This document shows positions 2-17,672 of a DNA stretch of 18,286 nt, piece after piece. The stretch is from a bacterium (GTDB lineage: Bacteria > Arandabacterota > Arandabacteria > Arandabacterales > JALGWA01), in assembly GCA_050125095.1 (NCBI GenBank), contig JASFEA010000065.1:1-18286 (forward strand). The letters run 5' to 3'. The stretch's first letter is position 1, and each line of letters starts with the position of its first letter. The translations under genes were made by a program, and so were the position numbers. Under the pieces are notes generated by a model. It saw only the letters and a list, made by a program, of their open reading frames with translations, was not told where the DNA came from and made no database searches.

Positions 2-2665
2 ATGCCCATCCTCTTCCTGGCAGTGACGGGCGACTACGACATAGCCGAGCTCAGGAAGGTGGTAGAGGACCAGATAGAGCCCAGGATAGAGAGGGTCCGG
101 GGCATAGCCAGCGCCTTCACCCAGGGCGGAAGGGATCGCGAGATCCACGTCTATGCCGACGATGAGAAGCTCGAGGCCTACGGACTTACCATTCAGGACC
201 TCCAGACGGCGCTCATGCTGGAGAACGTCCGCGTTCCGGGCGGGAGCATCAAGCAGGGCCGGACGGACTTCCTGGTGAGGACCTCGGGCGAGTTCAAGGC
301 CGTCGACGACATAAGGAACGTGGTGGTCACGCGTTACCAGGGGGCCCCCGTGTTCATGAAGGACGTGGCCACCGTCGAGGACACTTTCGCGGATGAGGCC
401 GAGATCATCCGGTTCAACGGCGAGCCGGGCATAATGCTGATGCTTCAGAAGCAATCGACCTACAACACGGTCGAGGTATCCGACCGCGTCAAGGCACAGC
501 TCCCCGCCATCGAACAGGCCCTTGGGGTCAAGTTCGTGCCGCTGATGGACTCGGCGCGCTATATCAACCGGTCCATCGGCAACCTGAGAACGGTGGCGCT
601 TCAGGGGGCCATCCTCGCGATCATAGTGCTGTTCCTCTTCCTGAGGAACGTTCCGTCGACGCTTATAATCGCGACCTCCATACCCGTTTCGATCGTCGCC
701 ACTTTCATCATCATGAACGCCACCGATGTCACGCTGAATATGATATCGATGGGGGGGCTCACGCTTGGAATTGGAATGCTCGTGGACTCGTCCATCGTTG
801 TGCTGGAGAATATCTACCGGCACCGCGAGAGGGGGCTTACGCGCAAGGAGGCAGCTACTTACGGCGCCGCCGAGGTGGCGACGCCAATCACGGCCTCTGT
901 ACTCACAACGGTCGCCGTATTCTTCCCGGTGATATTCGTGCCCGGGATCGCGGGCATACTCTTCAGGGACATGGCGCTTACGGTCACGTTCGCGCTCATC
1001 TGTTCCCTCTTCGTTGCGCTGACGCTTATCCCGCTGCTTTCCTCGAAGGTCCTCACGGTGGGCAGGAAGGCAAGGGAGGAGGTAAAGGAGAGGCGCATAA
1101 CGAGGTCGTATGAGCGCGTCCTGCGGTGGGCGCTCGCGCACAGGAAGACCACCCTCGGCATAGCGTTGCTGATTTTCGTCTTCAGCCTGAGCCTGATGAG
1201 ATATGTCGGCGTCGAGTTCACCCCCGCCAGCGAACCGGGCGAGTTCAACGTCAAAGTGGAGCTGCCGGTGGGGACGAGGATAGAACGAACCGAGGAGGCC
1301 ACGGCCCAGGTGGAGTCCATAATCATATCCCAGGTGCCGGAGCTCGAGGCCATTTTCGCGCGCGTCGGGCAGGGAAGCGGTTTCGGGGCCTTCTTCGGGG
1401 GGGAGGGCAGTCACAGCGCCAACATCTACTTCCAGGCGGTGCCGCTTGAGGATAGGGACAGGAGCGACGAGCAAATACGCTTCGCGCTCAGCAAGCCCAT
1501 AACCAGGGTGCCCGGGGCCGAGGTATATTTCGCCACCGACGCCTTCTCGGAGATGATGTTCGGGGGCGCCAGGCTCAAGGTCGAGATATACGGCCACGAC
1601 CTCGATACGAGCAGGGATATAGCTCTCCGGGTCAAGGAGATCATGGAGGGCATTCCCGGGACCATGGACGTGAGGATATCGCGGGCCGAAGGCAAGCCGG
1701 AGATCCAGGTGGCCATAGACAGGGAAAGAGCGGCCTATTTCGGGCTCAACCTCAGCTCCATCGCCCATGCCATACAGACCGGGGTGATGGGCGACGTGGC
1801 GGGGCAATTCAGGGAAGAAGGCGACGAGTACAATATCAGGGTGAGGCTGCCCGAGGAGCGGCGCCGGTCGTTGAGCGACATCATGGACATCCTGGTGCCG
1901 TCCCCGCAGGGCCATTCGGTGCCGCTGGGAAGCGTAGCGAGTATGAAATACGTAACCGGACCCGTTGAGATCGAGCGGCTCGGCCAGCGCCGGGTCATAA
2001 ACGTGACGGGCAACCTCACGGGCGAGCGCGACCTCGGCAGCGTGGTCGGCGACCTCAGGGAAGCGCTCAAGCAGGTGGAGGTCCCGCGGGACTTCATCGT
2101 GCAGGTCGCGGGCGAGGCCGAGGACGTCGCCGAGTCCTTCAGGTGGCTCGGGCTTGCGCTCATGGGGGCCATTTTCCTGGTGTACATGGTAATGGCCTCG
2201 CAGTTTGAGTCGCTGAGGCACCCCTTCATCATCATGTTCTCGCTTCCGCTGTCATTCATCGGCGTGGCCTGGATGCTCTTCCTTTCGGGAACGACCCTCA
2301 GCATAAACTCATTTACCGGCGTCATCGTCCTCGCCGGCATAGTCGTGAACAACGCCATTATCCTCGTGGACTACACCAATCTCTTGAGGGCCCGGGGGGC
2401 CGATCTGGAGGAGGCCGTCGTGACGGCGGCCAAGACGAGGGCGAGGCCCATCCTGATGACGGCCGTGACCACTATTCTGGCCATGACACCCATGGCGCTG
2501 GGCCTGGGCGAGGGCGGCGAGCTCAACGCTCCCCTGGCCAGGTCGGTAGTGGGCGGGCTGTCGACATCGACGCTTCTCACTCTTGTCATTATCCCCGTCG
2601 TCTACATGAGTTTCGAGAAATTCACAATGAGGTTCTCCAGGAAGAAATCCGGAGGTGGCGACTAA
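2..2665 (+). CDS. Efflux RND transporter permease subunit (AcrB/AcrD/AcrF family), 5'-truncated by the window edge
   Basis: Two porter-domain/TM halves. TM4 GMLVDSSIVVLENI, TM10 GIVVNNAIILVD, RARPILMT, and the C-terminal PLARSVVGGL..STLLTLVIIPVVY are typical RND motifs. 887 aa are visible versus ~1,030 typical, so the true start lies upstream. Confidence 0.96.
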   Translation: MPILFLAVTGDYDIAELRKVVEDQIEPRIERVRGIASAFTQGGRDREIHVYADDEKLEAYGLTIQDLQTALMLENVRVPGGSIKQGRTDFLVRTSGEFKAVDDIRNVVVTRYQGAPVFMKDVATVEDTFADEAEIIRFNGEPGIMLMLQKQSTYNTVEVSDRVKAQLPAIEQALGVKFVPLMDSARYINRSIGNLRTVALQGAILAIIVLFLFLRNVPSTLIIATSIPVSIVATFIIMNATDVTLNMISMGGLTLGIGMLVDSSIVVLENIYRHRERGLTRKEAATYGAAEVATPITASVLTTVAVFFPVIFVPGIAGILFRDMALTVTFALICSLFVALTLIPLLSSKVLTVGRKAREEVKERRITRSYERVLRWALAHRKTTLGIALLIFVFSLSLMRYVGVEFTPASEPGEFNVKVELPVGTRIERTEEATAQVESIIISQVPELEAIFARVGQGSGFGAFFGGEGSHSANIYFQAVPLEDRDRSDEQIRFALSKPITRVPGAEVYFATDAFSEMMFGGARLKVEIYGHDLDTSRDIALRVKEIMEGIPGTMDVRISRAEGKPEIQVAIDRERAAYFGLNLSSIAHAIQTGVMGDVAGQFREEGDEYNIRVRLPEERRRSLSDIMDILVPSPQGHSVPLGSVASMKYVTGPVEIERLGQRRVINVTGNLTGERDLGSVVGDLREALKQVEVPRDFIVQVAGEAEDVAESFRWLGLALMGAIFLVYMVMASQFESLRHPFIIMFSLPLSFIGVAWMLFLSGTTLSINSFTGVIVLAGIVVNNAIILVDYTNLLRARGADLEEAVVTAAKTRARPILMTAVTTILAMTPMALGLGEGGELNAPLARSVVGGLSTSTLLTLVIIPVVYMSFEKFTMRFSRKKSGGGD

Positions 2666-2962
2666 ATGCCTACCGAGATGGTATTCGTGGTGTTCAACTC
2701 CTCGATAGAGGACGAGATGCTGGAGGCCCTCCGGGAAGCCGGTATGGACTGCTTCACCAAGATCCCCGGTCTTCACGGCCAGGGCAGCTGCTCCGAGCCC
2801 AGGCTCGACAGCCACGTCTGGCCCGGCACAAATATCGCGTATCTCATTGCGGTTCAAAGCGAAGAGCGCGAGCGCATCCTCGAGGCGATCCGGAAGATGA
2901 AGGGGATCCATCGCGAGGAAGGCGTCTCAGCATTCGTCTTCCCCCTGACTCACATCGTATAG
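2666..2962 (+). CDS. PII-like small protein, PG0541 family (RND transporter-associated)
   Basis: 98 aa with PII-like pattern MVFVVFN...FTKIPGLHGQG..EPRLDSHVWPGTN. ATG directly follows the RND stop (TAA-ATG), with SD GGAGGT at 2651-2656. Confidence 0.82.
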   Translation: MPTEMVFVVFNSSIEDEMLEALREAGMDCFTKIPGLHGQGSCSEPRLDSHVWPGTNIAYLIAVQSEERERILEAIRKMKGIHREEGVSAFVFPLTHIV

Positions 2963-3062
2963 CGCCCGCGGCCGCCCTGCGGCCCCGCTGCCGTCCGCCC
3001 GTTCCCTATGGCCCGGGGCAAGAGAGCCCGATGGGCATGAAACGGGGGCGCGTCAAGCCCAT

Positions 3063-3091
3063 AAAAAAAGGGGCGCCGTATGGCGCCCCTT
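3063..3091 (-). terminator. Rho-independent terminator of the ompA-family gene (possibly bidirectional)
   Basis: Stem AAGGGGCGCC (3068-3077), loop GTAT, GGCGCCCCTT (3082-3091). The A7 tract at 3063-3069 is a U tract on the minus strand. It lies between convergent genes. Confidence 0.88.
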
Positions 3092-3108
3092 AACGAATGC
3101 GGTCAGGC

Positions 3109-4413
3109 CTATTCGCCTTCCCCTTGGTAAATCGTGAACTCGATCCTTCTGTTCTGGGCCCTGCCCTCGGCAGTATCGTTGGAAGCCACTGGCTCGCGCT
3201 CGCCATGAGTCCGGACGAGGATCCTGCCCGGAGGCGCGCCCTTATCGATCATGTAGTCCTTGGCCGCCTGGGCCCTTCTCCTGCCGAGACCCATGTTGTA
3301 CTCGTCAGAGCCGACGCTGTCGGTGTGGCCGTGAATCACGATCCTGACCTCGGGGTAGAGCTTGATGATATCGTAGACGTAGTCGAGGGTCGGATTCGGG
3401 ATGGGCTTGATAATGGTCTTGTCGAAGGAGAACCTGATGACCTCGATCTCTGAGAGGTCGGGCATCTTGACCGGGCAACCCACCTCGTCGACCTCCACCC
3501 CGGCCGGGGTGTTGGGACAGGCGTCAAGGCCGTCGCACACGCCGTCGCCGTCGGTGTCCTTCGGACATCCGCGCTCGTCGACTATGCAGCCCTTGGGCGT
3601 GCCGGGGCACTTGTCGAGCCCGTCGCACACGCCGTCGCCGTCGGTGTCCTTCGGACATCCGCGCTCGTCGACTATGCAGCCCTTGGGCGTCTCGGGGCAT
3701 CTGTCGACGCCGTCACACACGCCGTCGCCGTCGGAGTCCACCTCGCAGCCGTCCTTGTCCACCACGCAGCCCATCGGCGTGTCGGGACACCTGTCCTCGC
3801 AGTCGCTCACGCCGTCGCCGTCCTGGTCGCCTTCGCCGCCGGGATACCATGTGATGCCGACCCCGAAGTACCAGTGCTGGTTTTCGGTGGCCATCGTCCC
3901 GATCATGTCGCGGTCGTCGGTGAGTATGTAACGGTACTTGAAGTTGAAGTCGAGGGCGGCGACGCAGTTGAGGAACACGTCAAAGCCGACTCCGGCCCCG
4001 AATGCCGGGTCCCATTGCTTGTCGAGCTGCATCTCTCTGGGGCGGTCGTTCGAGTCCCATCGCATTACCCCCACCCCCATGTTTATATAGGGGGAGAACC
4101 TGCGGTCCGGCATGAAAGCGTATAACAGATTGAGGTCAATCGGTATGAGGTTGGTTCTGTATGCGTAACTGTCCGTGTCATAGTTCCAGCCGTATCCAAC
4201 GTTGAACAGGAGCGACCAGTCGTTCATCTCGCTTATGGACCTGCGCAACTTGAAGTTGCCCATGAACCACCCTTTGGCCCGCTCATTGTCGCCGCCAAAG
4301 AGCTGGTTGTAGCCAAAGTCGCCACCGAGCCCTAGCCGCCTGTCGTAGGCGTAACCACTAGAGGCGGCGAGGATTACGGAAAAGCAAACCAGCAAGAGAA
4401 CCGCTTTCTTCAT
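3109..4413 (-). CDS. OmpA-family outer membrane protein (OM beta-barrel + 4 thrombospondin type-3 repeats + OmpA_C peptidoglycan-binding domain)
   Basis: ATG 4413 follows SD AAGGGAGGAG. Signal peptide MKKAVLLLVCFSVILAASSGYA; barrel strands (FSPYINMGVG, FGAGVGFD, YFGVGITWY); DxDGDGVxDxxDxCPxTP repeats; HGHTDSVGSDEYNMGLGRRRA...GRAQNRRIEF OmpA_C signature. Confidence 0.95.
   Translation of the reverse strand: MKKAVLLLVCFSVILAASSGYAYDRRLGLGGDFGYNQLFGGDNERAKGWFMGNFKLRRSISEMNDWSLLFNVGYGWNYDTDSYAYRTNLIPIDLNLLYAFMPDRRFSPYINMGVGVMRWDSNDRPREMQLDKQWDPAFGAGVGFDVFLNCVAALDFNFKYRYILTDDRDMIGTMATENQHWYFGVGITWYPGGEGDQDGDGVSDCEDRCPDTPMGCVVDKDGCEVDSDGDGVCDGVDRCPETPKGCIVDERGCPKDTDGDGVCDGLDKCPGTPKGCIVDERGCPKDTDGDGVCDGLDACPNTPAGVEVDEVGCPVKMPDLSEIEVIRFSFDKTIIKPIPNPTLDYVYDIIKLYPEVRIVIHGHTDSVGSDEYNMGLGRRRAQAAKDYMIDKGAPPGRILVRTHGEREPVASNDTAEGRAQNRRIEFTIYQGEGE
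3469..3828 (-). repeat. Four 90-nt/30-aa TSP type-3 Ca-binding repeats within ompA
   Basis: DQDGDGVSDCEDRCPDTPMGCVVDKDGCEV / DSDGDGVCDGVDRCPETPKGCIVDERGCPK / DTDGDGVCDGLDKCPGTPKGCIVDERGCPK / DTDGDGVCDGLDACPNTPAGVEVDEVGCPV. Nucleotides 3530-3600 and 3620-3690 are identical. Confidence 0.93.
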
Positions 4414-4585
4414 TGTAACTCCTCCCTTAGTTACCTTCACTCTGCGATGGTTCAATACTTAAGATCAAACCACCTCCTTACTGTTTCCGCCAATGCTTTG
4501 CACTAACGTGCACTTATACCTGTTTCGGTACACGGCTAGCGGCACTTTATCAACTCGCCAAAATCTAGTCAATCAAAAAATGAGC

Positions 4586-5585: not shown

Positions 5586-5726
5586 GATAGGGCAGCATTT
5601 TTTTCTTAAGGTCTTGCACCGCCTTGCCGAAGCAAGCAGATGTGTAGTCTCAACGGAATGCATAAATGCGCGGAGATCATTCAAGATTGACAAATTGGAA
5701 ATAATAGTTGCAAAGAGTTTTTTTTC

Positions 5727-5757
5727 TTGACAGGTTCTTTAGCACTATGATAGTTTG
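5727..5757 (+). promoter_or_regulatory. Putative sigma70 promoter upstream of the giant-protein gene
   Basis: TTGACA (5727-5732), 18 nt, then TAGTTT (5751-5756) preceded by TG-A. It shares the TGATAGTTTG 10-mer with the 4586 promoter and has a T-rich upstream tract. Confidence 0.6.
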
Positions 5758-5819
5758 GCAGCCGAATTTGGAAGTGATTAATACGGAGTGCCTTAGAGTA
5801 TTTTGGATGTTGTTTTCAC

Positions 5820-5851
5820 TTGACAACATTTGGGCGCGTGTGGCATGTTTG
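5820..5851 (+). promoter_or_regulatory. Possible second promoter upstream of the giant-protein gene
   Basis: TTGACA (5820-5825), 18 nt, then CATGTT preceded by TG-G and followed by TG. The -10 match is weak. Confidence 0.3.
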
Positions 5852-6225
5852 CGCTACTCTTTAAGAAGGGTAAGGTATACTGTATAGTTCCGAATGTGTT
5901 TTTGCTGAAAGGGGGGAGCTGAGTTCCGCTGCGAGAGACCCTCATCCAGTGGGAAAGCACGTTGGCTAATTAGCGTCGCTCGCAAGCATTCGAGTAGCTG
6001 GCTCATGCACTGTGAGATTAAGAAAGAGATTGAGAAAGAAAAGGGAGTCTTGGGGAAGTCCAGGCTCTCCATGCGCATTCGGCAGCAGGACAGAGAAGCA
6101 GGAGGTAGGCAATAGTGAGTCAACGCACTAATCGTTTTTCTTTATCAAGAGCCTTTACATATATATTCTCAGGTCTTGATGTCGAAAGTGGCAAGGGTTC
6201 AGTCAGAGAGAGGAGGAAAGGAGAA

Positions 6226-9200
6226 ATGGATTTCCATTCTTCTGCTAGGAAGCTTTTGGTCCTCAGTCTTCTCACCGCCGTGGTGATCGGTTTCGCCTCG
6301 GTCGCCAGCGCTACGATTACGATCACCAGCGCTGAGATCGTATTGATCGGCGACGAGGAGGGCGCAGGTGCCCGCGGTGAGGGTATGGTCAGTATCGGAG
6401 ACACTATAGAGGTTATAGTCAACGTCACCGATCCTGACAGCGTCCTGGCCGTAGTCGCCGACATGAGAAAGTACGGCGGGGCCGAAGAAGAGACGCTGTA
6501 CGCCTACCAGGGACGGCTGAGTTATATCTCTGGTGCCGCGTGGGTGCCGAGCTGCAGTATCACCGAGTACGGTGAGATCAACCAGCTCGCCATCTACTAT
6601 CCGGACTCCGACCTGGTCAGGACGGAGCACTGGACGGTGTGTCTCTCGGGCGGCGGTGCCGACGCTTATGCAACGGTTCCCGTTTTCACGGGCAACTGCA
6701 GCGGCGGCGCTTTCAACATCGGCACACCGGCGATCTACGACACCGCGGCCGTCAGCGCCTATGGGGTCAACAACTGGCGCGTTTACTGGCAGAGTGGAGA
6801 CGGTGATCCGGGCGGCGCGGTGGACACCTTCTATATCAGGGATGTAGACACCGCAACCGACCTTCCCACCATGGCCTTTGATGGGACCATGTGCTACGCG
6901 GAGAACGCGAGTGGCGACACGCTATTTACCTTCACTCCGGCGGTCACCGCCGGCACGCTTTGCTGTAGCGCCCTGCCGGCCAACTGCGACTACGTCGACT
7001 TCCAGACGTTCGGCGCTGGTTCCCACACCTGGGAGGTCACCGGTAACGTCAGCGGCGTTCTCGACGATGATGCGGTCACCGACGTGCTGTACTACGGCGT
7101 GGACTCGGGTGATACCCTCTTCTCATTCTTAATCGAGAACGTATCCTCGGGCGTCTGCTGTAATACCATCTGCACGGACTGCGACCACTTCGAGTTCGAG
7201 ACCTGGCAGTGGATCCCCGCGGACTCGACCTGGAGGGATACGCTCATAGTCCAGGACGGCGGGCAGTGGTGGATCGACAATACGCCGTGTGACTATATCG
7301 GCCACACGGATCCGTCGGCGCTGATCACCGCCTGGAACATCCTCTGGCCGGACTCAGGATTCCCGTATGACGTGGACACCATGAGCACGACGGTGCCCGA
7401 GGATGAGGGCGGCAACCCCGTCGACTACGATACTCACCACACCACGTACGCCCAGCTCGTTGATCCGGGCGGTGCGGGTGCCGAGTTCATCGAAGCCGAG
7501 GATTACTTCATAAGGTGCATGACCGACAGTTCGGGTGTGTTCGCTCTCTGGGGCGATGTCGACAACGTGCTCAACCCGACATCGCTCTTCGGGTTTGCTC
7601 CGGATACGGCCTATGCGTATCTGGACCTCCAGAGACTGTCGCACGCGAACGGTAATGATGATATACCGGACTTCTATTTCGATGCGCACTGGTTCGGCGA
7701 TCCTTACAGCGACACCAGCTACACCAACGTGGACTCGCTGGGATGGTGGATCGAGATGAGCCCCTGGTACGCAAGCGTCGACTGCCCGACCGAGGACAAC
7801 GGCGTCACCGGTCTCTGGGAAGTCGCATTCGCTTGTTCGGCGGGCTCAACCGACGTTGCCGCCGGCGAGCAGATGATCATGAAGTGGGTGTCGGACTCGG
7901 GTGATACGACTTACTTCCCCGGGTTCAGCCACAGCCTGTGCGCCATCGACAACCAGATCCCCGACTATATGCTGACCGGTTCGAGTGACAGCGTTACGGT
8001 GGACGATATCAGCTTCGTCGCCGACATGGACAACGCCGGCAACGCCGACGTCCTCAACCCGATAAGCATAGGAAACCCCATTGCCGACTGGCTGCAGATC
8101 AGAATCGACCTGGAGGGTCTCTTCGACCTCGCGGACGTCGAGGCCGGCGGATGGGGATTCGCGGACCTGATGGGCATCGGCTTCTACATGGCCGATACGC
8201 TCACGACGCCGCTGGGGCTTGATTTCCTCGGTGAGATGGGTCCCTTGAGCCCGATCTGGGGCACGGACTCGGTGGACGTGGTCGCTTCGCCGCCTTCACC
8301 GTACGCCTGGGATCAGGACTCGGTGGTAACTGCGGGAGTGTGGATCTTCGACAACGCCGGTAACGGCTGGTTCGTGGGTCCCAAGGACACGGCGCTGGCA
8401 ATCGATAACCAGCTGCCGGTGGTCCCCGAGGACTCCTGCGCCGCGTGGGGCGACCCCATCTACACGACAATCGCCGTGGATGCGGCCCCGTACGTGGGCT
8501 ACGCGGACTGCGGCGAGCCCGATCAGAATATCTACGGAAATGACTACTTCGACAGGGACAAGATCGTCTGCTACGCCAATCTCGGAGACGTCTTCGGCGC
8601 CGACGAGATCGAGAACGTGACGATGGTCAATGACCCGTACTGCGTCGGTGGCATCATCATGTACGACGACGGTACGCTGGGCGACGACCCTGTCGCGGAC
8701 GACGGTAACTACACGGGCCACGCCCGCGTGGAGATCGGCGACGGCACGACCTTCTGCTTCCTCGACAGCGACGAGGAGTCGGTGTACTTCGAGGTCGAGG
8801 TGGAGGACGACGCCGGTAACGTGGCCATAAGCGGCTCCTGTATCGGTGTCAAGTACGACAACGAGCTGCCCACGATCACCGCCGAGAACGTCATGATCAT
8901 GTTCTGGGATCATCCGGGCACCATACCGGTGGACGGTGATCTCAATGAAGACGGTATCGTCTCCATCGGCGACTCGCTCATATTCGAGTGGAGAGCCGAG
9001 GACGAGACCTGGGACGACATGGAGATCGACTCGGTGAGAGTGGATGCGGCAAGCATCGACCCGACGTACTCCGGGTGGATCACGCTCTACTGGGATCCCT
9101 CGGGCGGCGTCTATCGCAACTACGTGCCCGGTGAGGCGGGAATGCCTTACGAGGTCACGATGGGTTCGATTGACGGCGAGACGCTCGAGGCCGCTTTCTG

Positions 9201-12200
9201 CGTGTGGGACAATGCCGGTAACTCCACCGGCTGGAAGACATTCGTGTCCGATCCGGCCCTCACGCTCGACAACGTCGGCGGCATGATCCAGTGGGATCTG
9301 TTCCAGATCTCAACTACCGGTCCGGATTCGATCGCCTCGATCGGCGACACCATCTCCTTCTACTACGACGGTCCTGATGACGACGTGGTCGCCATCTGGA
9401 TCAACGTGGACGACGTCAGCGAGACCGTCGAATGGCTCGAGCTGACAGAGGGAGCGTCCTGGTCGGGCTGGATCATCGTGGATCCGGGCGCCGTCGATAC
9501 AATGGATTACTACTTCATGGGCAAGGCGTTCGACAATGTCGCCAACGTGGATTCCGGCTACCTGCCGAGATTCCCGGTTGACAATATGCCGCCCACTATG
9601 GACTGCGCCAATGCATGGCTCAGGCTGTGGGACTATGTCGACAACGCCGCCGACCGTTACGTCAATATCGGCGACAACCTGACGGCCTGCTTCTGGGACG
9701 TCAACGGCGACGTGGAGGCCGTGACCTGCGACTGGTCCAACTACGGGGCCGGCACTACCGACATGGTCAAGGGCTTCCAGGACCAGCCTGAACTCTGGGG
9801 TTACAGGCTCGATCCGGTTCCCGAGAACGGCGTCGACCAGGGCCCCGGCGGAATGGCCACCCTGGTCCACATGGTCGCGACCGACAAGGCCGGGAACAGT
9901 GTCGACGGCTGGTTCTGCCCCATCTGGCATGATGAGGCCGAGAACGACAGCCTGCTCCTGGACCAGGGCGGCACGTGCGACCACGTGTGCCAGCCGGTCG
10001 ATACCGAGCGGCCCGGCCCGCCTGATGCCGGCGACATTACCTTCGAGCTCATCGACGATGACGGCAACGGCGTCGCCAACGTCGGTGACAGGCTGAGAAT
10101 CATAGTCGACATGGGCAATCCCACGGCTCCGGGTTACGACATGCAGTGGGAAAGCGCCATGGTCCACGCCGAGATTCACCAGTACGGCGACGACTATGCG
10201 GCCGATCCCGAAGGCTACCTGATGCTGACCGACGACAACTACAGCGCCGGCGGCGAGGGTGACGGCCGGTTCTCATACTTCTACTTCTTCAACAACTCCG
10301 ACGGCGACCAGCTCATAGAGGGCTGCCCGATTCTCCCCGGCATGCTCGACGTGCCGGCCGGAGACGACTCGACCAGGATCAGGGTCCGGTCGATGGACGA
10401 TGCGGGTAACTACTCGGATGGCTGGATCCTGAGCGACGTGCTCCAGGGCGACGTCGTGATGCTCGGCGCCTCGGGCCCGGTCGCGGTGGACAACGAGATA
10501 CCCGAGATCGATCCCGAGTGGATCACGGTCACCTTCGTGGACGAGGACTTCAACGGCATCCTCTCCATCGGTGACACCGCCACGGTGTCGGTCGACATGA
10601 CCGACGCGCCGGGCAACGAGGTCGAGGGCGTATGGGCCAACCTCTATGACTGGGGTTACCCGTCAATGGATATGGTCGCTCTCCAGGCCAACTCGCCTGT
10701 CTACACATTCACCTGGGTAATCGAGAGAGTCCCCGGCGACTGGTGGATAGACGGAAGGCTGTTCGAGGACGAGCTGCCCGAGGAGGGCCAGGAGCCTGAA
10801 GAGATCCCGCCCATCATGAACGCGGTGCAGCTCGAGCCCGAGATGGAAGTCGTGGCTATAGACGCATCGGGCAACTGGAGCGCCTATGATTGGACCGGCG
10901 CCCCCGAGTGGGACGTCTTCACCTGGGGCGATCCTTATATCGATGACTGGCCGTTCATGTGGACCTGGACATCGAGCGGGCCTATCGGCGAGTTCATGGC
11001 CGATACGGACGCTCCGGACCCGGTGAACCCGACCTTCATCGCTACCGACTTTGAAGGCAGTGCGGTCAGGGCCACCAGGCTGGTCGACGGCAGGATCGGT
11101 CTCGATATCTTCTATGACTTCGAGCCCAGAAACCCTGACGTTTACGAGTTCTACGTCTACGGTGACATGGCCACTCCGGGCGTCATCGACTGGGATACCT
11201 ATCTCGGCGAGCCCGTTGCGGCAGGCACGGTGCCTGAGAGCGGATGGGGCACCGAGTACGAGTGGGTTTCGGACATACTTCCCGAGAGGGATGATCCTTA
11301 TAACTTCGGCGTTCTCGCGAAGGATAACGCCGATAACTTCTCCGACCCGGCGCTCACCTGGATCGCCGGCGAGGACGCGGACGCGACGGCTCCTACGGGC
11401 TACGTGGATGTGTTCAACGAGAACGACGCGCCGGCAACGCTCATCGATGCCGACGGCTACTTCCACGGCTATATCAACGAGCCCGAGGAATTCCAGAACG
11501 TCTGCTACGTCGAGTGGTACGGCAGGGTCAAGGATCTCGACAAGGTCACTCCGGGCGACCAGCCCAGCGAGTGGGTCTACTTCGACGAGACGGGCCAGTA
11601 TCCGCCGTCATACCCGCTTCCGGGGATGCCTTACATTGCCGACCCTGAAAGTCTGCTGAGCGCCGTCGCGGCGGCGCTGCCCGCATTCAGCTATCTCGAA
11701 TGCACGGACTTCGAGGTCTGCATAAGGCCTTGGGACGAGGCGGGCAACCACCCGACCATGGGCGAGTGCGTGCCCACGGCGTACACTTACGACACCTTCT
11801 ACCCGGCGATCACCTGGTACTCGATCGGCGGTTACACCGATCCGTGGAACCAGGAGTTCTCCAACACCGAGATGCCTCTCGTTCAGGTACTGGCCAACGA
11901 CGCATGTGCTGCGACGGGCGAGCTGACCTACAAGCTCTACCTGACCAAGACAGGCGGCCAGAGCCTGGGCGGCATCGGCCTGTGGCTGGATACCCAGACC
12001 CTGCCCGTGGGCGAGATCTATGAGTACACCTGGGATCTCACCAACTATCCGCAGGGCTTCACGGGTCTCAAGGCGGTTGTGATGGACGAGGCCGGAAACG
12101 GTGTCTACCACGACTGGCAGATAGTCGTGCTCGACGAGACGGCGCCCGAGGGCATGTTCGCAACGGGCGACCACCCGAACAACATGGTCATCCCCGGCCA

Positions 12201-15200
12201 GCACTTCGGCACTCATGAGAGCGTGTCTCTCTACGTGCTCGTGCCCTGGATGTCGGGTATGCCGGGCTACGACGTCGGCGAGGTAAGGACCTACTGGAGA
12301 ATGTACGAGAGCATGGACGACTGGACCATGATCGGTACGCAGACCTCGTACAACGATACCACGCCCAACGTCGGCGGCTATCTCTATTACGATTACGAGT
12401 TCAGCTGGGACACCAGCGCCTTCACGGACGGCGACATGATCGAGCTCAAGGCCGAGATCTACGACGAGAGGGGCAACATGACCTCCACGACGATCTGGGT
12501 CATGATCAACGGCGAATACGCCGTGCTCGCAATGGACGTCCCTGAAGCGATGGAGGTCTGCGGCGAGGACCGCGTCAGCGGCAAGATCAACATAGTCGGT
12601 ACCGAAGTCTCCTGTCCTTGGGACACTTACATGGCCTTCTGGATGTACAAGGAGACCAGTGAGCCCGACGTCGGTGACTGCGGTTGGGACGGCCGCTGGG
12701 CACAGCCGGACACGATGTTCCGTACAGGCGTGACCGACGAGACTATCTGGCGCTACACCTTCGATACGACCACGCTGCCGGACGGTTCGTACGACTTCAT
12801 GCTGTGCACCTGGGACATCGGAGATAACTGGAGTTACGACCAGGATCACGACTGGTGCGTCGACGCCGGTGCCTTCGCGGCCGCGGTCGCTAACGGCATG
12901 GGTATGACGCTCGTGGTCGACAACACGGCGCCTGAGGTCCGGATCGTGGACGTCAACTGCGCCGGCAATGTCTACCAGGGCACCGAGGCCTACGTGAGCT
13001 GTGGCGAAGACGTCACGGTGACCGCGTGGACCGAGACCACCTGCGATGTGGCCAGAGTCGAGTACTACCTCAGGGGCAGCGAGATCATGGACTACCAGCA
13101 CCTGGTAGGCATGAGCAGCACGCCCGGTGACTACGAGGTGACGTTCCCGGCTTCGGGCGACATCTGTGATCTCCTCGTTCCGGGCGCTCTCAGCGACGGC
13201 TTCGCGATGCCGATGCTCGTCGCGAGGGTCGTGGACGTGTTCGGCAACTACGACGAGTACAGCATCAGCTTCTACATCCTGAACGTCGCACCGACGAGCG
13301 CCTTCCTGACGAATCCGGCTCACGGAGAGCTGCTCAGGCACTGGGTCGCTCTGAGGTCGGACGTCATCGATGCTGACGCTATCTACGATGTGACTTACCA
13401 GTACCAGGCCGTCGGATCGCTGGACGACTGGACCAACATCGCGGTGACCAAGCCGCAGATGGGCGATCCGTGGAACCTGGATACCAAGAACGATACCATC
13501 TACTGGCGTACCGAGGGCGTCGCCGACGGCGCCTACTATCTGAGGGCGGTGGCCAGGAACGAGAACCTGGTGGTTGACGACGACCCGCCTCAGATCATGG
13601 TGACAGTCGACAACACGCCGCCTGTGGTCACGCTGGAGACGACCCCGATGTATCCGGAGGCCTTCACGGGTGACGCTCCGTTCATCGGCGGGCCTTATGT
13701 CGAGCTCGTGGCGAACGCGACTGACGCCAACGGCATCATGTGGGTGGACTTCGGTTACAGGACGGCGGAGACCGACGTCGGCTCGACCACGTGGATCTGG
13801 AATGACAGGCAGGCTCCTTGGGCCTACATGTGGGACGAGGACAGCGGTACTCCGTTCCCCGGCATAATCTCCGGCGGCTACATCATCGTGGCCCACGGCG
13901 AGGACAATGCCGGCAACGAGTTCTGGTACGAGGTCGAGCGTTACATCGACCACTGCCCGCCTTGGGGCTGGGTCACTCAGATCAATGACGACCTCACCCC
14001 GGAGAACTCGCAGTTCTCAGGCATGATCTCGATTACGGGCACCTGCATTGACGGTGCTCCGGACGCCAACTGCGACTTCGCGAACTGGGAGGAGAGCAGC
14101 GGCATGCACGGCGCTCAGTTCCAGTACGCGCCGGTCGACGGTATGTTCATGGCGGCCGAGAGCGGTACCGGCATGGTCTGGACGAATCTTGGCGGCCTCA
14201 TCATGGGTGACGGTCCGAGCTACACGCTCAACTGGGACGCCAGTTTCGCGGTCCCGGGCCGGTACTACCTGAGGCTCAAGGGCTTCGACAACGTGAACAA
14301 CGACGCGGAGTCGCTCTGCTTCGAGCTGCCGTACATCATGATCGAGATCCTGCCGCCTGGCCCGAGCACGGCGCAGATCGCCGGTTATGACAACGTGAGC
14401 GGCTGGCTGGTAGCGACCGCCCCGACGACTGCCGAGTACGTCAGGTTCGAGTACATAGTCGACGTGCCGGTGTTCGGCGATGAGTACGAGTGGACGCTGC
14501 TCGACCAGACCGACACTCCGATGGTGACGGGCGTCTACGGAGTCCCCGTCAACCTCGAGAACGTGCCGGACGGCGATTACCTCGTAAGGGCGATCGCGGT
14601 CTATCCGGACGGCTCCGAGGATGACGCTCCGCCTTACATGGAAGCCACGGTCACCGGCGGCGTCATGACAATGGGCGCGACGCCCAACGTCACCGAGTTC
14701 GAGCGCTGGGGCAACATCAACGCCCCGTCCAGCGTCAGGGTAGGTGCGGTCAGCACCAACGAGCCTACCTTCGTGGTGCTGCTCGATAACGACATACCCA
14801 ACAAGTTCAATACCCCGACGGCGGTCCTGCTGGATCCCGAGAATCCGGACGACCCGACCATCTGGGTCGACGAGTTCTCCATCACGCCTGCCGGCTACCA
14901 CGGCAACGCCACGATCCTGGCGAGCCATGTGGATAACGGCAGCGTGGGCATCCTCGAGAAGAGGGTGAGGACCTATCGTTCGACCATCGCCGAGGGTACA
15001 AAGGGCTATGTCTCGCAGGACGGCATGTCAATCGACATACCTTCCGGCGCCCACGACTACTCGGACGGCATACTGATGATCCACACCCCCGAGCCCGCGG
15101 CGCAGCCGCAGGTGGACGAGGTTGTGGTGGTAGGCCAGCCGGTGATGCTCTACAGCCTTTACGACGGTTGGGCATGCTTCGATGAGGGCTACACCGCTCA

Positions 15201-16569
15201 CATCAAGATGTCCTACAGCGATAGCGACATTCCCGCCGGCGGCTCCGAGGACAACCTCCGGGTAGCCAGGTGGAATCACTCGTCGCGCGTCTGGGAATAC
15301 AGCGGCATCTTCAATGTCCAGCAGGACACGGAAGGCAATGAGCTGTGGTTCAACGCGTCGTGCATGGATCTCTACGCTGTGGTCCATACGGCAGGCTTCA
15401 GGATTGCGACGCCGCGCATCATGCCGTTCTGCAACGGCTACACGGGCCGCTATCCGACAATAGTAACCATCATCGAGGACGAGATTCATGGTGTCGACCC
15501 TGATGACATCAAGGTCACGATCTCAGGTCCTGCCGACAATCCCGTGTTCGACAACACGATCATCTGGGATGACGGCCACGCGGCCTGGGGCTGGGTTGGA
15601 TACTATGATAACGTCTCCAATGATCTCTGGATCAATATCGAGGACGATGAGTTCGACTGGGACAATGAGTACGGTTATGACTTTACTCACGGTCTGCCGG
15701 GCGGCACCTACACGATGTACTATGTGGCGCTCAACGGCATCGGCGAGCGGAAGACCAAAACCCTGGAGTTCATAGTTGACGCGGGCAAGCCCCATGTGGA
15801 ACTCCTCGGCGACAAGGTCAATGCGCACCCGGTCATCGAACTCGCGGTCAGCGACGACCTCGCCGGTCTCGACCTCTGGAAGATCTGCGCCGACATGTAC
15901 ATAGTCGAGCGGGTCGACCAGGACTGCTGCTACGACGGGTACTACGGTCCCGTCGAGGCGGAAGAGAGGCTGGGCTGGGTCAAGCCGAGCTCACTCAAGT
16001 GGAAGGACGACGATGAGGAGTCGGGCATCCTCCTGCTCGAGTTCGGTGAGATCTACTACAACGGTAATCCGCACGGGCTCTCGCTCGACGTGGTCGTCTA
16101 CGACTGCGAGTACGAGTGCTACGGTGACGATTCCGATTGTGATGATTGCCTGTGCTACTACATGGAGCACGGCATCGCCGACTGCGTGGGCAACCATGCG
16201 ACGCCGATATGGAGACGTTACACCGTCGACATCTACTATGACCCGGATGGCGATGGTGATCCCAGCGCTTACGGCATCGCCGATGCGCACTTCTATCCGA
16301 ACCCGATCAACTTCTCTGAGCACGGGTGCGGAAGCATCTCCTACGACCTGAACGCAGCCGGTGACCTGACGGTGAAGATCTTCGACTTCGCCGGCGATTA
16401 CGTGGCGACGTTGTACGATGGATTCGCCAGCGGCACCGGGACCATGGAATGGTGCGGTCAGGATCATACGGGTCGCATGGTAGGTGCGGGTATTTACATC
16501 GGTTCGGCAACATTTGACAATGGTTCTGCAGTAGTGACCAGAAACTTCAAGATCGGTGTAATTAGATAG
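6226..16569 (+). CDS. Giant (3,447 aa) secreted acidic multi-Ig-like protein with C-terminal T9SS type-A sorting / FlgD-Ig-like domain
   Basis: ATG 6226 with SD AGGAGG (6211-6216) gives a Sec signal (MDFHSSARKLLVLSLLTAVVIGFASVASA). Recurrent D(N/D/K/E)AGN...DNxxP Ig-like module ends. The CTD reads FYPNP..SISYDL...LTVKIFDFAGDYVATL...WCGQDHTGRMVGAGIYI...KIGVIR. An alternative in-frame GTG lies at 6115. Confidence 0.9.
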   Translation: MDFHSSARKLLVLSLLTAVVIGFASVASATITITSAEIVLIGDEEGAGARGEGMVSIGDTIEVIVNVTDPDSVLAVVADMRKYGGAEEETLYAYQGRLSYISGAAWVPSCSITEYGEINQLAIYYPDSDLVRTEHWTVCLSGGGADAYATVPVFTGNCSGGAFNIGTPAIYDTAAVSAYGVNNWRVYWQSGDGDPGGAVDTFYIRDVDTATDLPTMAFDGTMCYAENASGDTLFTFTPAVTAGTLCCSALPANCDYVDFQTFGAGSHTWEVTGNVSGVLDDDAVTDVLYYGVDSGDTLFSFLIENVSSGVCCNTICTDCDHFEFETWQWIPADSTWRDTLIVQDGGQWWIDNTPCDYIGHTDPSALITAWNILWPDSGFPYDVDTMSTTVPEDEGGNPVDYDTHHTTYAQLVDPGGAGAEFIEAEDYFIRCMTDSSGVFALWGDVDNVLNPTSLFGFAPDTAYAYLDLQRLSHANGNDDIPDFYFDAHWFGDPYSDTSYTNVDSLGWWIEMSPWYASVDCPTEDNGVTGLWEVAFACSAGSTDVAAGEQMIMKWVSDSGDTTYFPGFSHSLCAIDNQIPDYMLTGSSDSVTVDDISFVADMDNAGNADVLNPISIGNPIADWLQIRIDLEGLFDLADVEAGGWGFADLMGIGFYMADTLTTPLGLDFLGEMGPLSPIWGTDSVDVVASPPSPYAWDQDSVVTAGVWIFDNAGNGWFVGPKDTALAIDNQLPVVPEDSCAAWGDPIYTTIAVDAAPYVGYADCGEPDQNIYGNDYFDRDKIVCYANLGDVFGADEIENVTMVNDPYCVGGIIMYDDGTLGDDPVADDGNYTGHARVEIGDGTTFCFLDSDEESVYFEVEVEDDAGNVAISGSCIGVKYDNELPTITAENVMIMFWDHPGTIPVDGDLNEDGIVSIGDSLIFEWRAEDETWDDMEIDSVRVDAASIDPTYSGWITLYWDPSGGVYRNYVPGEAGMPYEVTMGSIDGETLEAAFCVWDNAGNSTGWKTFVSDPALTLDNVGGMIQWDLFQISTTGPDSIASIGDTISFYYDGPDDDVVAIWINVDDVSETVEWLELTEGASWSGWIIVDPGAVDTMDYYFMGKAFDNVANVDSGYLPRFPVDNMPPTMDCANAWLRLWDYVDNAADRYVNIGDNLTACFWDVNGDVEAVTCDWSNYGAGTTDMVKGFQDQPELWGYRLDPVPENGVDQGPGGMATLVHMVATDKAGNSVDGWFCPIWHDEAENDSLLLDQGGTCDHVCQPVDTERPGPPDAGDITFELIDDDGNGVANVGDRLRIIVDMGNPTAPGYDMQWESAMVHAEIHQYGDDYAADPEGYLMLTDDNYSAGGEGDGRFSYFYFFNNSDGDQLIEGCPILPGMLDVPAGDDSTRIRVRSMDDAGNYSDGWILSDVLQGDVVMLGASGPVAVDNEIPEIDPEWITVTFVDEDFNGILSIGDTATVSVDMTDAPGNEVEGVWANLYDWGYPSMDMVALQANSPVYTFTWVIERVPGDWWIDGRLFEDELPEEGQEPEEIPPIMNAVQLEPEMEVVAIDASGNWSAYDWTGAPEWDVFTWGDPYIDDWPFMWTWTSSGPIGEFMADTDAPDPVNPTFIATDFEGSAVRATRLVDGRIGLDIFYDFEPRNPDVYEFYVYGDMATPGVIDWDTYLGEPVAAGTVPESGWGTEYEWVSDILPERDDPYNFGVLAKDNADNFSDPALTWIAGEDADATAPTGYVDVFNENDAPATLIDADGYFHGYINEPEEFQNVCYVEWYGRVKDLDKVTPGDQPSEWVYFDETGQYPPSYPLPGMPYIADPESLLSAVAAALPAFSYLECTDFEVCIRPWDEAGNHPTMGECVPTAYTYDTFYPAITWYSIGGYTDPWNQEFSNTEMPLVQVLANDACAATGELTYKLYLTKTGGQSLGGIGLWLDTQTLPVGEIYEYTWDLTNYPQGFTGLKAVVMDEAGNGVYHDWQIVVLDETAPEGMFATGDHPNNMVIPGQHFGTHESVSLYVLVPWMSGMPGYDVGEVRTYWRMYESMDDWTMIGTQTSYNDTTPNVGGYLYYDYEFSWDTSAFTDGDMIELKAEIYDERGNMTSTTIWVMINGEYAVLAMDVPEAMEVCGEDRVSGKINIVGTEVSCPWDTYMAFWMYKETSEPDVGDCGWDGRWAQPDTMFRTGVTDETIWRYTFDTTTLPDGSYDFMLCTWDIGDNWSYDQDHDWCVDAGAFAAAVANGMGMTLVVDNTAPEVRIVDVNCAGNVYQGTEAYVSCGEDVTVTAWTETTCDVARVEYYLRGSEIMDYQHLVGMSSTPGDYEVTFPASGDICDLLVPGALSDGFAMPMLVARVVDVFGNYDEYSISFYILNVAPTSAFLTNPAHGELLRHWVALRSDVIDADAIYDVTYQYQAVGSLDDWTNIAVTKPQMGDPWNLDTKNDTIYWRTEGVADGAYYLRAVARNENLVVDDDPPQIMVTVDNTPPVVTLETTPMYPEAFTGDAPFIGGPYVELVANATDANGIMWVDFGYRTAETDVGSTTWIWNDRQAPWAYMWDEDSGTPFPGIISGGYIIVAHGEDNAGNEFWYEVERYIDHCPPWGWVTQINDDLTPENSQFSGMISITGTCIDGAPDANCDFANWEESSGMHGAQFQYAPVDGMFMAAESGTGMVWTNLGGLIMGDGPSYTLNWDASFAVPGRYYLRLKGFDNVNNDAESLCFELPYIMIEILPPGPSTAQIAGYDNVSGWLVATAPTTAEYVRFEYIVDVPVFGDEYEWTLLDQTDTPMVTGVYGVPVNLENVPDGDYLVRAIAVYPDGSEDDAPPYMEATVTGGVMTMGATPNVTEFERWGNINAPSSVRVGAVSTNEPTFVVLLDNDIPNKFNTPTAVLLDPENPDDPTIWVDEFSITPAGYHGNATILASHVDNGSVGILEKRVRTYRSTIAEGTKGYVSQDGMSIDIPSGAHDYSDGILMIHTPEPAAQPQVDEVVVVGQPVMLYSLYDGWACFDEGYTAHIKMSYSDSDIPAGGSEDNLRVARWNHSSRVWEYSGIFNVQQDTEGNELWFNASCMDLYAVVHTAGFRIATPRIMPFCNGYTGRYPTIVTIIEDEIHGVDPDDIKVTISGPADNPVFDNTIIWDDGHAAWGWVGYYDNVSNDLWINIEDDEFDWDNEYGYDFTHGLPGGTYTMYYVALNGIGERKTKTLEFIVDAGKPHVELLGDKVNAHPVIELAVSDDLAGLDLWKICADMYIVERVDQDCCYDGYYGPVEAEERLGWVKPSSLKWKDDDEESGILLLEFGEIYYNGNPHGLSLDVVVYDCEYECYGDDSDCDDCLCYYMEHGIADCVGNHATPIWRRYTVDIYYDPDGDGDPSAYGIADAHFYPNPINFSEHGCGSISYDLNAAGDLTVKIFDFAGDYVATLYDGFASGTGTMEWCGQDHTGRMVGAGIYIGSATFDNGSAVVTRNFKIGVIR
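16276..16566 (+). other. T9SS type-A CTD / FlgD-Ig-like C-terminal sorting domain
   Basis: YPNP, KIFDxxG, WxGxDxxGxxVxxGIY and terminal KxxVIR motifs follow an acidic linker (PDGDGDP). Confidence 0.85.
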
Positions 16570-16582
16570 GCAAGTAGGGATT

Positions 16583-16605
16583 GGGAGGGGGAAACTCCCC
16601 CTCCC
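16583..16605 (+). promoter_or_regulatory. Intercistronic stem-loop without U-tract
   Basis: GGGAGGGGGA (16583-16592), AAC, TCCCCCTCCC (16596-16605): a perfect 10-bp stem followed by GCTTCCC. Confidence 0.7.
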
Positions 16606-16666
16606 GCTTCCCGAGAGGATATAGAGTATGATGACAAATCTTCCCCCAACGAGGAGGTCAAGGGAA

Positions 16667-17563
16667 ATGTCGAAGCTTCTACTTGCTTTCACCGTCGCGT
16701 GCGTTCTGGTCTGCTATACCGCTGTGGCTTTTGGTGCTGACGCTCATTCCGCTCCACACCTTAGGATGGGGGTAGGCGCTCGAGCCATGGGCTTCGGAAC
16801 GGCCTTTACGGCCATTGCGGATGACGCGACGGCTAATTATTACAACCCCGCGGGGTTGGTGCAGGTTGAGCACATCGAGGTGACTTTCAGCTATGCGGCA
16901 AACATGGCCGTAGACAGGAACCTCAACTACATTGGCTACGCTCAGTGGCTCGGAACGGGTGCCCTCGGCATAGCCTGGATCAACGCGGGCATGCAGGATG
17001 TCCCGCTCTATGACGAGTCGGGCATGAGGACTGGTACCGACACCTACTCGGATAACACCATCATGTTGTCCTACGCTATCGAGGCCGGCAGCTTTATGTT
17101 CGGCGCCACGGGCAAGATCCTGGCGCAGAACACCCTGGGGACGAGCGCTACCGGGTTCGGAGTCGACCTCGGCGGCAAGCTCATGGTGACGGACAACGTC
17201 TGTGCCGCCCTCATGATCAGGGACATCGGGTCGCAGTACGGCGACACCGACGTCCCGCTGGACTGGCGCTTCGGTACGGCGGTCCATGCCCTGGACGGAG
17301 GTCTCAAGGTCGGGTTTGATATCGGTAAGACCCAGCATATCGACAATCTCAAGCTCTATCTGGGCGCTGAGTACGGTATGGAATTCCATCCGGGCTACAG
17401 CGCGTTCTTCAGGGCCGGTATCAATGATGTCGAGAGGCGCGGCTACTGCGCCGGTCTCGGCATTGCTGTACCCTACGTCATCTTTGACTACACTTACGTG
17501 ACGGAAAAGGAAGAAGCGGCACTCGGCAATAATCATAGAATTTCAGTATCGGCTAGGTGGTAA
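16667..17563 (+). CDS. PorV/PorQ-family (FadL-like) outer membrane beta-barrel
   Basis: Signal peptide; N-terminal LRMGVGARAMGFGTAFTAIADDATANYYNPAGL motif; GFGVDLG; FDYTY...LGNNHRISVSARW ending in an aromatic residue. SD GAGGAGG at 16651-16657; alternative ATG at 16628. Confidence 0.9.
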   Translation: MSKLLLAFTVACVLVCYTAVAFGADAHSAPHLRMGVGARAMGFGTAFTAIADDATANYYNPAGLVQVEHIEVTFSYAANMAVDRNLNYIGYAQWLGTGALGIAWINAGMQDVPLYDESGMRTGTDTYSDNTIMLSYAIEAGSFMFGATGKILAQNTLGTSATGFGVDLGGKLMVTDNVCAALMIRDIGSQYGDTDVPLDWRFGTAVHALDGGLKVGFDIGKTQHIDNLKLYLGAEYGMEFHPGYSAFFRAGINDVERRGYCAGLGIAVPYVIFDYTYVTEKEEAALGNNHRISVSARW

Positions 17564-17586
17564 GAGCCGAACGAGCGTGAGCACCG

Positions 17587-17618
17587 AAGGGGGCGCTTTA
17601 TGCGCCCCCTTTCTATTT
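17587..17618 (+). terminator. Rho-independent terminator after the PorV-family gene
   Basis: AAGGGGGCGC (17587-17596), TTTAT, GCGCCCCCTT (17602-17611), followed by TCTATTT. Confidence 0.8.
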
Positions 17619-17672
17619 GGGGTCAGGTCTTGAAATGCACAAAATCCCGGGGTCAGGTCTTAGAATGCACAA
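17619..17672 (+). repeat. Tandem 24-nt direct repeat, REP-like (GGGGTCAGGTCTT..AATGCACAA)
   Basis: Copies at 17619-17642 and 17649-17672, 30-nt period, 22/24 identical. Confidence 0.8.

Follow-up and report, generated by a model that had tools for sequence, protein, structure and literature searches.

The 18,286-nt stretch of bacterial DNA analysed here, hereafter the window, is one contig (C65; JASFEA010000065.1) of an uncultured sediment bacterium, whose genome bin holds 3.35 Mb in 268 contigs and is 91% complete. Two consecutive genes on the same strand fill most of the window: the upstream gene encodes a giant protein with a signal peptide at one end and a candidate sorting tail at the other, and the downstream gene encodes an outer-membrane barrel of the PorV/PorQ family (Table 1). 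With moderate confidence, we interpret the pair as a cargo and its cognate carrier or anchor, together forming a module of a type IX-like secretion system (T9SS). Within this interpretation, the anchoring step is the least secure.

Table 1. Features of the two-gene locus, with window coordinates (aa, amino acids; Ig, immunoglobulin; ORF, open reading frame; HMM, hidden Markov model)
Feature	Coordinates	Strand	Basis
Promoter-like site (TTGACA, 16 nt, GATAGT), some 470 nt before the giant gene	5727..5754	+	consensus scan
Gene for the giant cargo, 3,447 aa, Ig-like domains in an all-beta chain	6226..16569	+	ORF, translation, domain searches, model
Predicted Sec signal peptide, 29 aa, Ala-Ser-Ala end	6226..6312	+	read from translation
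C-terminal sorting domain, residues ~3351-3447, 7-strand beta-sandwich, type-A-like / FlgD-Ig-like, last hairpin lengthened	16276..16566	+	HMMs, own-genome profile, hhalign, model
G/C-rich hairpin between cargo and barrel genes, no U-run	16577..16612	+	folding
PorV/PorQ-family 14-strand outer-membrane barrel, 298 aa including signal peptide	16667..17563	+	NCBIfam, model, Foldseek, tree
Terminator-like hairpin, 11-bp stem, then U-rich run	17586..17620	+	folding

The giant gene starts at ATG 6226 within a long frame (6115-16569), behind a GGAGGA-type ribosome site. Its mature product has a mass of about 375.6 kDa and is acidic (isoelectric point 4.05; 11.1% Asp, 1.1% Lys), and the full sequence contains 62 Cys. 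Read by eye from the sequence, the N-terminus runs from a basic through a hydrophobic stretch to an Ala-x-Ala end, a shape shared by the N-termini of the orthologues. Within Eisenbacteria, these orthologues are homologous over their full length (3,388-3,602 aa; 26-51% identity), and for residues ~1930-3336 the identity to the giants in Zixibacteria- or Ignavibacteria-titled records is 22-28%; the body is without a paralogue in its own genome. Pfam detects only Big_3_3 (31.4 bits), a PDB sequence search returns nothing at E <= 1, and an ESM Atlas search with residues 1900-3340 yields weak leads only, to unnamed or Ig-like clusters, with recognition below the mark. An AlphaFold model of the last 1000 aa is all-beta and composed of beta-sandwich domains (mean predicted local distance difference test, pLDDT, 77.3), and its Foldseek matches are generic multi-Ig chains only (alpha-2-macroglobulin, GhpA, titin, S-layer), with template modelling (TM) scores <= 0.15 in the rows cited. 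On the strength of this model, the giant may be read as a chain of Ig-like beta-sandwich domains, and it is probably a structural or adhesive surface fibre. A more specific function was sought for the body and none could be named, Pfam, PDB, ESM Atlas and Foldseek giving only generic matches.

The C-terminal tail gives real matches to existing models, all of them under the curated cut-offs. Over the last 117 aa, FlgD_ig (PF13860) scores 23.1 bits (E 7.5e-5, profile positions 12-76 of 79), under its cut-off of 27, and TIGR04183 (Por_Secre_tail) scores 14.7 bits (E 0.023), under its cut-off of 23; the tail region models of PorZ and PorU give 28.5 bits (E 5e-7) and 15.1 bits, respectively, and no type B model is among the nine families listed for this segment. 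A tail profile iterated on the genome's own ORFs recovered 173 ORFs, nearly all with the domain in C-terminal position; it retrieves the giant's tail at E 2.4e-13, with the domain reaching the last residue. Three proteins of the genome pass TIGR04183 (33.5, 31.4 and 28.8 bits): two belong to this own-genome set, and the third, at 28.8 bits, reaches only 17.1 bits on the own-genome profile. When 34 barrel-linked tails, aligned together, are compared with 165 ordinary tails of the genome drawn from this own-genome set, the hhalign probability is 99.5% (E 3.9e-23). The tail is modelled as seven strands (model residues 904-998, block pLDDT 75-92); a passage of PMC11285876 describes the type A sorting domain as a 3+4 sandwich. 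From the seven-strand model and the profile matches, it follows that the tail belongs, in diverged form, to the type-A/FlgD-Ig tail family, the label 'type A' holding by likeness, without passing a curated threshold. We rejected 'PorZ-type tail' as a distinctive label: 20 tails of the genome match the PorZ tail region, and that of the giant ranks 14th.

The most likely start codon of the barrel gene is ATG 16667, at which its signal peptide begins; residues in frame upstream of this codon look conserved but coincide with the ribosome site. With this start, the gap to the giant gene is 97 nt. The barrel passes the PorV/PorQ family model NF033709 by a narrow margin (93.6 bits, 91.7 in the genome search, cut-off 90), and its orthologues carry the NCBI name 'PorV/PorQ family protein', but it fails the more specific models: 24.2 bits against a cut-off of 250 for the PorV equivalog (NF033710), 55.4 against 220 for the PorQ equivalog (NF033711), and 76.1 against 325 for PorV2 (NF052325). 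The PorP/SprF model (TIGR03519) detects nothing at this barrel at E <= 0.001. An AlphaFold (AF2) model built from 34 sequences has 14 strands (pLDDT 84; predicted TM score, pTM, 0.82), and its top Foldseek matches are the PorV chains 8gl6_F (TM 0.74, E 3e-10) and 6h3i_F (TM 0.72, E 3e-9), followed by FadL and TodX. Larger versions of the barrel were also observed: in eight Eisenbacteria-titled loci (L096, L099, L102, L108, L110-L112 and L117), the barrel that follows the giant gene has 500-550 aa, and a barrel elsewhere in the present genome (C12:6217-8319) has 700 aa, all of these carrying a C-terminal extension of at least 200 aa.

Most of what an earlier note on this DNA had read from the letters alone is recovered by these analyses. 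ORF, ribosome site and translation agree on the 3,447-aa protein with its signal peptide and C-terminal tail; the PorV/PorQ-family gene does lie about 97 nt further on; and folding supports the terminator that the note had placed behind it, as a strong hairpin with a U-rich run. Its description of the tail as a YPNP/FlgD-Ig sorting domain stands in part: the segment matches the FlgD_ig, T9SS and PorZ tail models, as well as its own family with the 99.5% probability given above, but every curated match lies below its cut-off.

Conservation of the gene pair was assessed from both directions. Relatives were surveyed by a protein search of 61 genomes, with an orthologue-level cut of E <= 1e-55. 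Public genomes, one per species, were scanned with the barrel alignment, 80 loci being kept. Conversely, metagenome contigs were scanned with a seed on the tail motif, giving 35 loci, a few records of which duplicate loci of the public-genome scan. Of the 17 other genomes in the class, 12 have an orthologue-level barrel match; the remaining five are 57-94% complete. Eleven of these 12 loci were examined, and in all 11 the barrel is directly preceded, on the same strand, by a tail-bearing ORF; six of these ORFs are complete (3,388-3,602 aa) and five are cut by a contig end or N-gap. Among the best 45 of the 80 public loci, the upstream ORF bears a tail in 44, and the 45th lacks upstream DNA (44/44 usable loci). 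In those 44, the ORF either ends at most 127 nt before the most upstream start of the barrel ORF or overlaps it by 46 nt, and these ORFs, where complete or limited by the flank, have lengths between 2,100 and over 3,300 aa. The 35 weaker public loci, mostly from Poribacteria and Riflebacteria, have a tail-bearing neighbour in only 6 cases, another upstream ORF in 24, and none in 5. Starting from the tail, a barrel is found directly downstream in 32 of 32 usable loci (three of the 35 were too short), either 0-123 nt after the stop codon or overlapping by up to 19 nt.

Such a pairing far exceeds chance. The pair appears to have been kept across several little-known phyla, and this conservation suggests that each giant has a dedicated carrier or anchor and not a general one. 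We give no phylum count, as titles of near-identical sequences conflict: near-identical barrels are titled both 'Ignavibacteria' and 'Zixibacteria', and one is titled 'Alphaproteobacteria'. The host itself belongs to a lineage outside Bacteroidia in the Fibrobacteres-Chlorobi-Bacteroidetes (FCB) group, as the earlier note had supposed; the nearest titled records in the barrel-alignment scan are those of Candidatus Eisenbacteria.

The barrel is one of many in its genome, which contains 12-13 PorV-family barrels, compared with three in the genome of Roseivirga, our control for barrel and T9SS component searches. A barrel on contig C39, adjacent to PorU, reaches 192 bits on the family model; on the PorV equivalog (cut-off 250) it has 108 bits, compared with 24 for the window's barrel. 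In a quick LG+G4 tree of 95 barrels, which has many long branches and gives a coarse picture only, the C39 barrel groups with the best-scoring Roseivirga PorV-family barrel (431.5 bits on NF033709). The window's barrel lies in a clade of 41 rows with a Shimodaira-Hasegawa-like approximate likelihood ratio test (SH-aLRT) support of 83, whose other members all come from such giant-barrel loci of other genomes; the paralogues encoded in its own genome fall outside the clade, so that it forms its own orthogroup. The number of barrels and the existence of a separate PorU-PorV pair thus indicate that the window's barrel is a PorV paralogue, neither the only nor the housekeeping copy; the housekeeping PorV is the PorU-adjacent gene on C39.

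Association of a barrel with a tail is a repeated pattern in this genome. By the own-genome profile (E <= 1e-4), six of 13 PorV-family barrels directly follow a tail-bearing ORF, on contigs C65, C12, C107, C32, C24 and C39, the ORF on C39 being PorU. At each of the five loci other than the window, the barrel comes directly after a cargo protein, and the bodies of these proteins, PorU among them, are unrelated. These six tails are distinguished by a longer last hairpin: 19-24 residues lie beyond the end of the profile match in all six, as against 15 in ordinary tails. Among 168 tail ORFs with a complete 3' end, nine are of the long-hairpin type, six of them directly upstream of a barrel, and 159 are ordinary, none of them in that position (Fisher's test, 2.9e-9, with a threshold picked after the data were seen). 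A profile of barrel-linked tails from other genomes outscores the generic profile for seven ORFs of this genome, six of which lie by barrels. A lengthened last hairpin combined with an adjacent barrel gene may hence provide a simple sequence mark to predict surface-retained tail proteins.

Other PorV-family barrels of the genome have more elaborate surroundings. Two modules on contig C2 (C2:43803-49330, L024; C2:57629-64107, L022) consist of a TonB-dependent receptor gene, a gene for a 627-704-aa protein with a weak tail of the barrel-linked type, and a PorV-family barrel gene. On C71 (C71:8785-15612, L027), the barrel comes directly after a TonB-dependent receptor, and a 641-aa protein with such a tail is encoded two genes further. 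The module on C32 (C32:4736-12076, L031) encodes tail-bearing proteins of 354 and 1,018 aa, then a PorV-family barrel, then an 820-aa protein; the 1,018-aa protein has a weak match to ExeM/NucH nucleases and the 820-aa protein has a ComEA-type helix-hairpin-helix region, and the whole may be a DNA-binding or DNA-uptake surface module. Two further elements are located at contig ends: a second PorU-like protein with a long-type tail (C154:144-4637; 156 bits on PorU), and a barrel with a best score on 'PorV2' (C187:624-1745; 142.9 bits) that groups with the third Roseivirga PorV-family gene.

Physical association of tail and barrel was addressed by co-folding barrel residues 24-298 with the 105-aa tail, each with a 34-row alignment. 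Three runs gave interface scores (interaction prediction score from aligned errors, ipSAE) of 0.87, 0.88 and 0.90, compared with 0.01 for the best of three controls; the mark used with this tool is reached by 58 of 80 solved complexes and by 2 of 110 mismatched pairs. The pLDDT is 87 or higher for both partners, and 93% or more of the contacts recur between runs. On the tail, the contacts involve the conserved YPNP segment, the central strand pair and the last strand; on the barrel, they involve residues 81-84, 107-119, 154-161, 191-195, 224-226 and 280-286, together with the N-terminal segment 24-34. Following the even-strand topology rule and the strand order of the model, these barrel residues would correspond to extracellular loops.

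For the remainder of the secretion machinery, the genome presents an incomplete picture. SprA is recognised by SprA_N (74.8 bits) in a 2,025-aa frame, PorU reaches 542 bits against a cut-off of 420 on C39, directly followed by the PorV-family barrel described above, and about 170 proteins carry the same kind of tail. For PorP/SprF (TIGR03519), the sole match across the genome is to another barrel, on C107, with 21 bits where 90.55 are required. The lipopolysaccharide donor is reported to be PorZ, and no full-length copy of it was found in the genome (best 64.5 bits, cut-off 260). GldK, GldL and GldM power carrier release in Bacteroidota. The GldK candidates of the genome were rejected, being FGE-sulfatase/PKD proteins with at most 99 bits against a cut-off of 350, and the two neighbourhoods examined in relatives contain CHAT/TPR or serpin genes and no porKLMN-like genes. 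GldM and GldL were detected in none of five genomes of the class (the present one, G000, and its relatives G002, G003, G009 and G017), and GldL in none of four further module-bearing genomes (G062-G065); the Roseivirga control was positive at 131.7 bits. Very divergent homologues of these components may be present. With SprA, PorU and PorV found, and GldK, GldL, GldM and PorP undetected, the variant T9SS anticipated by the earlier note gains support; the distribution suggests a system that either operates without the known motor and ring or uses very divergent ones.

Non-coding elements of the locus can be described from folding and consensus matching. The promoter-like site at 5727 agrees with the consensus at 10 of 12 positions; this is a consensus match only, and the region holds nine such sites versus 4.2 expected from shuffles. 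It lies in a 640-nt non-coding stretch before the giant gene (5586-6225), which contains another promoter-like site at 5861; no Rfam family reaches its gathering score in the window, this stretch included. Between the two genes, the hairpin at 16577-16612 has a folding energy of -29.6 kcal/mol (z -3.8, 0 of 200 shuffles as stable); it might serve to stabilise the long message upstream of it, or to fix the proportions in which the two products are made. The hairpin behind the barrel gene (17586-17612) is likewise supported by folding (-29.5 kcal/mol, z -3.2, 0 of 200 shuffles as stable), although a simple consensus terminator scan did not list it. Contigs at least 99% identical to the window, from four wetland metatranscriptome runs, cover parts of both genes as well as 5719-6075; strand and level are unreadable from such contigs. 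Upstream of the locus, at 2-2962 and 3109-4455, the window encodes an RND efflux permease cut at the window start, followed by a P-II-like protein of the PG0541 family (83.4 bits, cut-off 45), and, on the minus strand, an OmpA-family protein with thrombospondin type 3 repeats. Judged by ORF sizes and order only, relatives seem to share the succession RND, OmpA, thioredoxin, giant, barrel.

In the mechanism that we propose, the giant acidic protein would be exported by Sec, as its signal peptide implies, and would then, by analogy, cross the outer membrane through the SprA translocon, SprA being present in the genome. The extracellular loops that receive the C-terminal beta-sandwich would be those of the barrel encoded directly downstream, and not those of the general PorV; this step is proposed because of the conserved adjacency, the separate barrel orthogroup and the co-fold. 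The tail would most likely remain uncleaved and non-covalently bound, so that the barrel would anchor a fibre of Ig domains of about 375 kDa on the cell surface. This final step, also drawn by analogy, is the least supported. Precedents come from sections of PMC10947112 and PMC10202324, where PorU and PorZ are reported to keep their tails and to sit on PorV and PorQ, and a passage of PMC10202324 speculates that cognate PorV-like barrels shield tails from cleavage.

Several points weigh against this mechanism. The giant's tail lies under the curated cut-offs of every T9SS/FlgD model and its likeness to the PorZ tail is undistinctive. The clade of 41 barrels is only moderately supported. The co-fold shows likeness and possibly memory, since PorV-substrate complexes such as 8gl6 have already been solved; specificity for this barrel over its paralogues is inferred from genomics only. 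With GldK, GldL and GldM undetected, the transport step taken by analogy is less secure, and tail retention is a proposal likewise made by analogy. Finally, co-transcription of the two genes finds no support in the RNA libraries, where no contig bridges 16570-16666, across the intergenic hairpin.

The data also have to be confronted with other ways in which the two genes could work together. The barrel could be a dedicated but transient shuttle, which would pick up this one very large cargo at the translocon and pass it to PorU for removal of the tail, the giant then being released or attached covalently to a surface glycolipid like ordinary type A cargo. The tail has all the type-A-like motifs and belongs to the same domain family as about 165 ordinary tails, PorU is present well above its cut-off (542 bits versus 420), and the genomic pairing and the co-fold fit a shuttle as well as an anchor. 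The lengthened last hairpin, however, is common only to other barrel-adjacent cargo, including PorU, whose tail is reportedly retained; full-length PorZ was not found (64.5 bits, cut-off 260); and with a general PorV already present, a private shuttle leading to the same end result needs a further reason. We regard a transient shuttle as unlikely, though as the most probable of the alternatives. The earlier note had left the choice between private shuttle and permanent anchor: the cargo-specific barrel contained in both is supported by adjacency, orthogroup and co-fold, and the data do not divide the two. Its related expectations of an adjacency conserved in relatives (11/11), public genomes (44/44) and metagenomes (32/32), of a barrel other than the sole housekeeping copy, and of a confident tail-barrel interface (0.88 versus 0.01) were all borne out.

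A function in uptake has also been considered, in which the barrel would be a FadL-like channel importing a hydrophobic or polymeric substrate captured by the giant, the two being linked by shared physiology. The rank of the FadL and TodX transporters as next best structural matches after PorV and the modules in which other PorV-family barrels of the genome accompany TonB-dependent receptors are in line with such a role, but the sequence family of the barrel is PorV/PorQ and not FadL, and what the co-fold predicts with confidence is contact with the sorting tail, which alone of the whole cargo is common to secretion substrates. Moreover, five other loci pair unrelated cargo bodies with a barrel, and the common element is therefore the tail. 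Taken together, this makes uptake quite improbable. Nor do we give much more than marginal credence, slightly less than to uptake, to the idea that the pair is a self-contained export and anchoring device independent of SprA and of the rest of the T9SS. It would account for the lack of detectable GldK, GldL and GldM here and in eight other module-bearing genomes, the positive control being found; yet the genome has SprA, PorU, PorV and about 170 tail-bearing proteins, and a 14-strand barrel with an N-terminal plug region would seem small for a 375-kDa multi-domain protein.

The favoured interpretation, a cognate barrel that carries or anchors the giant, would add to the known division of labour among T9SS carriers, which part of PMC12635249 presents as type A cargo served by the general PorV and type B cargo by private PorP/SprF carriers. 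This locus and the five others of the genome form a third arrangement, namely a type-A-like tail with a private barrel of the PorV/PorQ family, where neither PorP nor the GldKLMN energy chain is detected. If the barrel indeed holds the giant, anchoring by a barrel-tail contact would be an old and general solution and not a peculiarity of PorZ and PorU, and one would have to ask how, in the absence of the known motor, carrier and cargo together get away from the translocon. Extending this into a scenario that we put forward only tentatively, and consider doubtful as a whole, the PorV family would have radiated into cargo-specific carriers in early-branching relatives of Bacteroidota that have no detectable PorP/SprF or GldKLMN; 'one barrel per large cargo' would be ancestral to type IX secretion, and the single PorV of Bacteroidia derived. 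In that case, giant and barrel would make up an ancient surface organelle, inherited vertically in Eisenbacteria-, Zixibacteria- and Ignavibacteria-titled lineages and released from the translocon without the known energy chain.

Our literature searches returned no description of this module, nor of such pairs outside Bacteroidota. The anchoring proposed here resembles PorQ holding PorZ, PorV holding PorU and SprF holding SprB, and each of these systems shares some features with the present one. With PorZ-PorQ and PorU-PorV of Porphyromonas gingivalis, the common points are a barrel of the same NCBIfam family and of the same PorV fold; there, the papers cited above report that the substrate keeps its C-terminal domain and is held on the surface by a 14-strand barrel of the PorV family, which for the giant is proposed by analogy. 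PorU and PorV are also an adjacent gene pair in this genome. The differences are a 375-kDa Ig-domain fibre as cargo, devoid of a PorZ or PorU body, an organism outside Bacteroidota, and a barrel that stands in an orthogroup apart and scores under the equivalog cut-offs for PorQ (55 bits, cut-off 220) and PorV (24 bits, cut-off 250). The pairing of a giant adhesin with an adjacent FadL-like barrel recalls SprB-SprF of Flavobacterium johnsoniae and PG1035-PorP of P. gingivalis; according to passages of PMC9143113 and PMC12635249, SprB and other type B cargo proteins bind private PorP/SprF carriers, which both export and anchor them. Unlike SprB-SprF, the present tail is type-A-like and the barrel belongs to the PorV/PorQ family and not to PorP/SprF, with no GldK track or GldLM motor detected. 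The general PorV of F. johnsoniae (PDB 6h3i, 8gl6) is the best structural match (TM 0.72-0.74), and the predicted binding of the tail to extracellular loops corresponds to the mode of substrate binding on the carrier's extracellular loops given in part of PMC10994853. PorV, however, serves many cargo proteins according to the relevant section of PMC12635249, whereas the barrel described here belongs to a set of 12-13 paralogues and has just one cargo gene to which it is tied.

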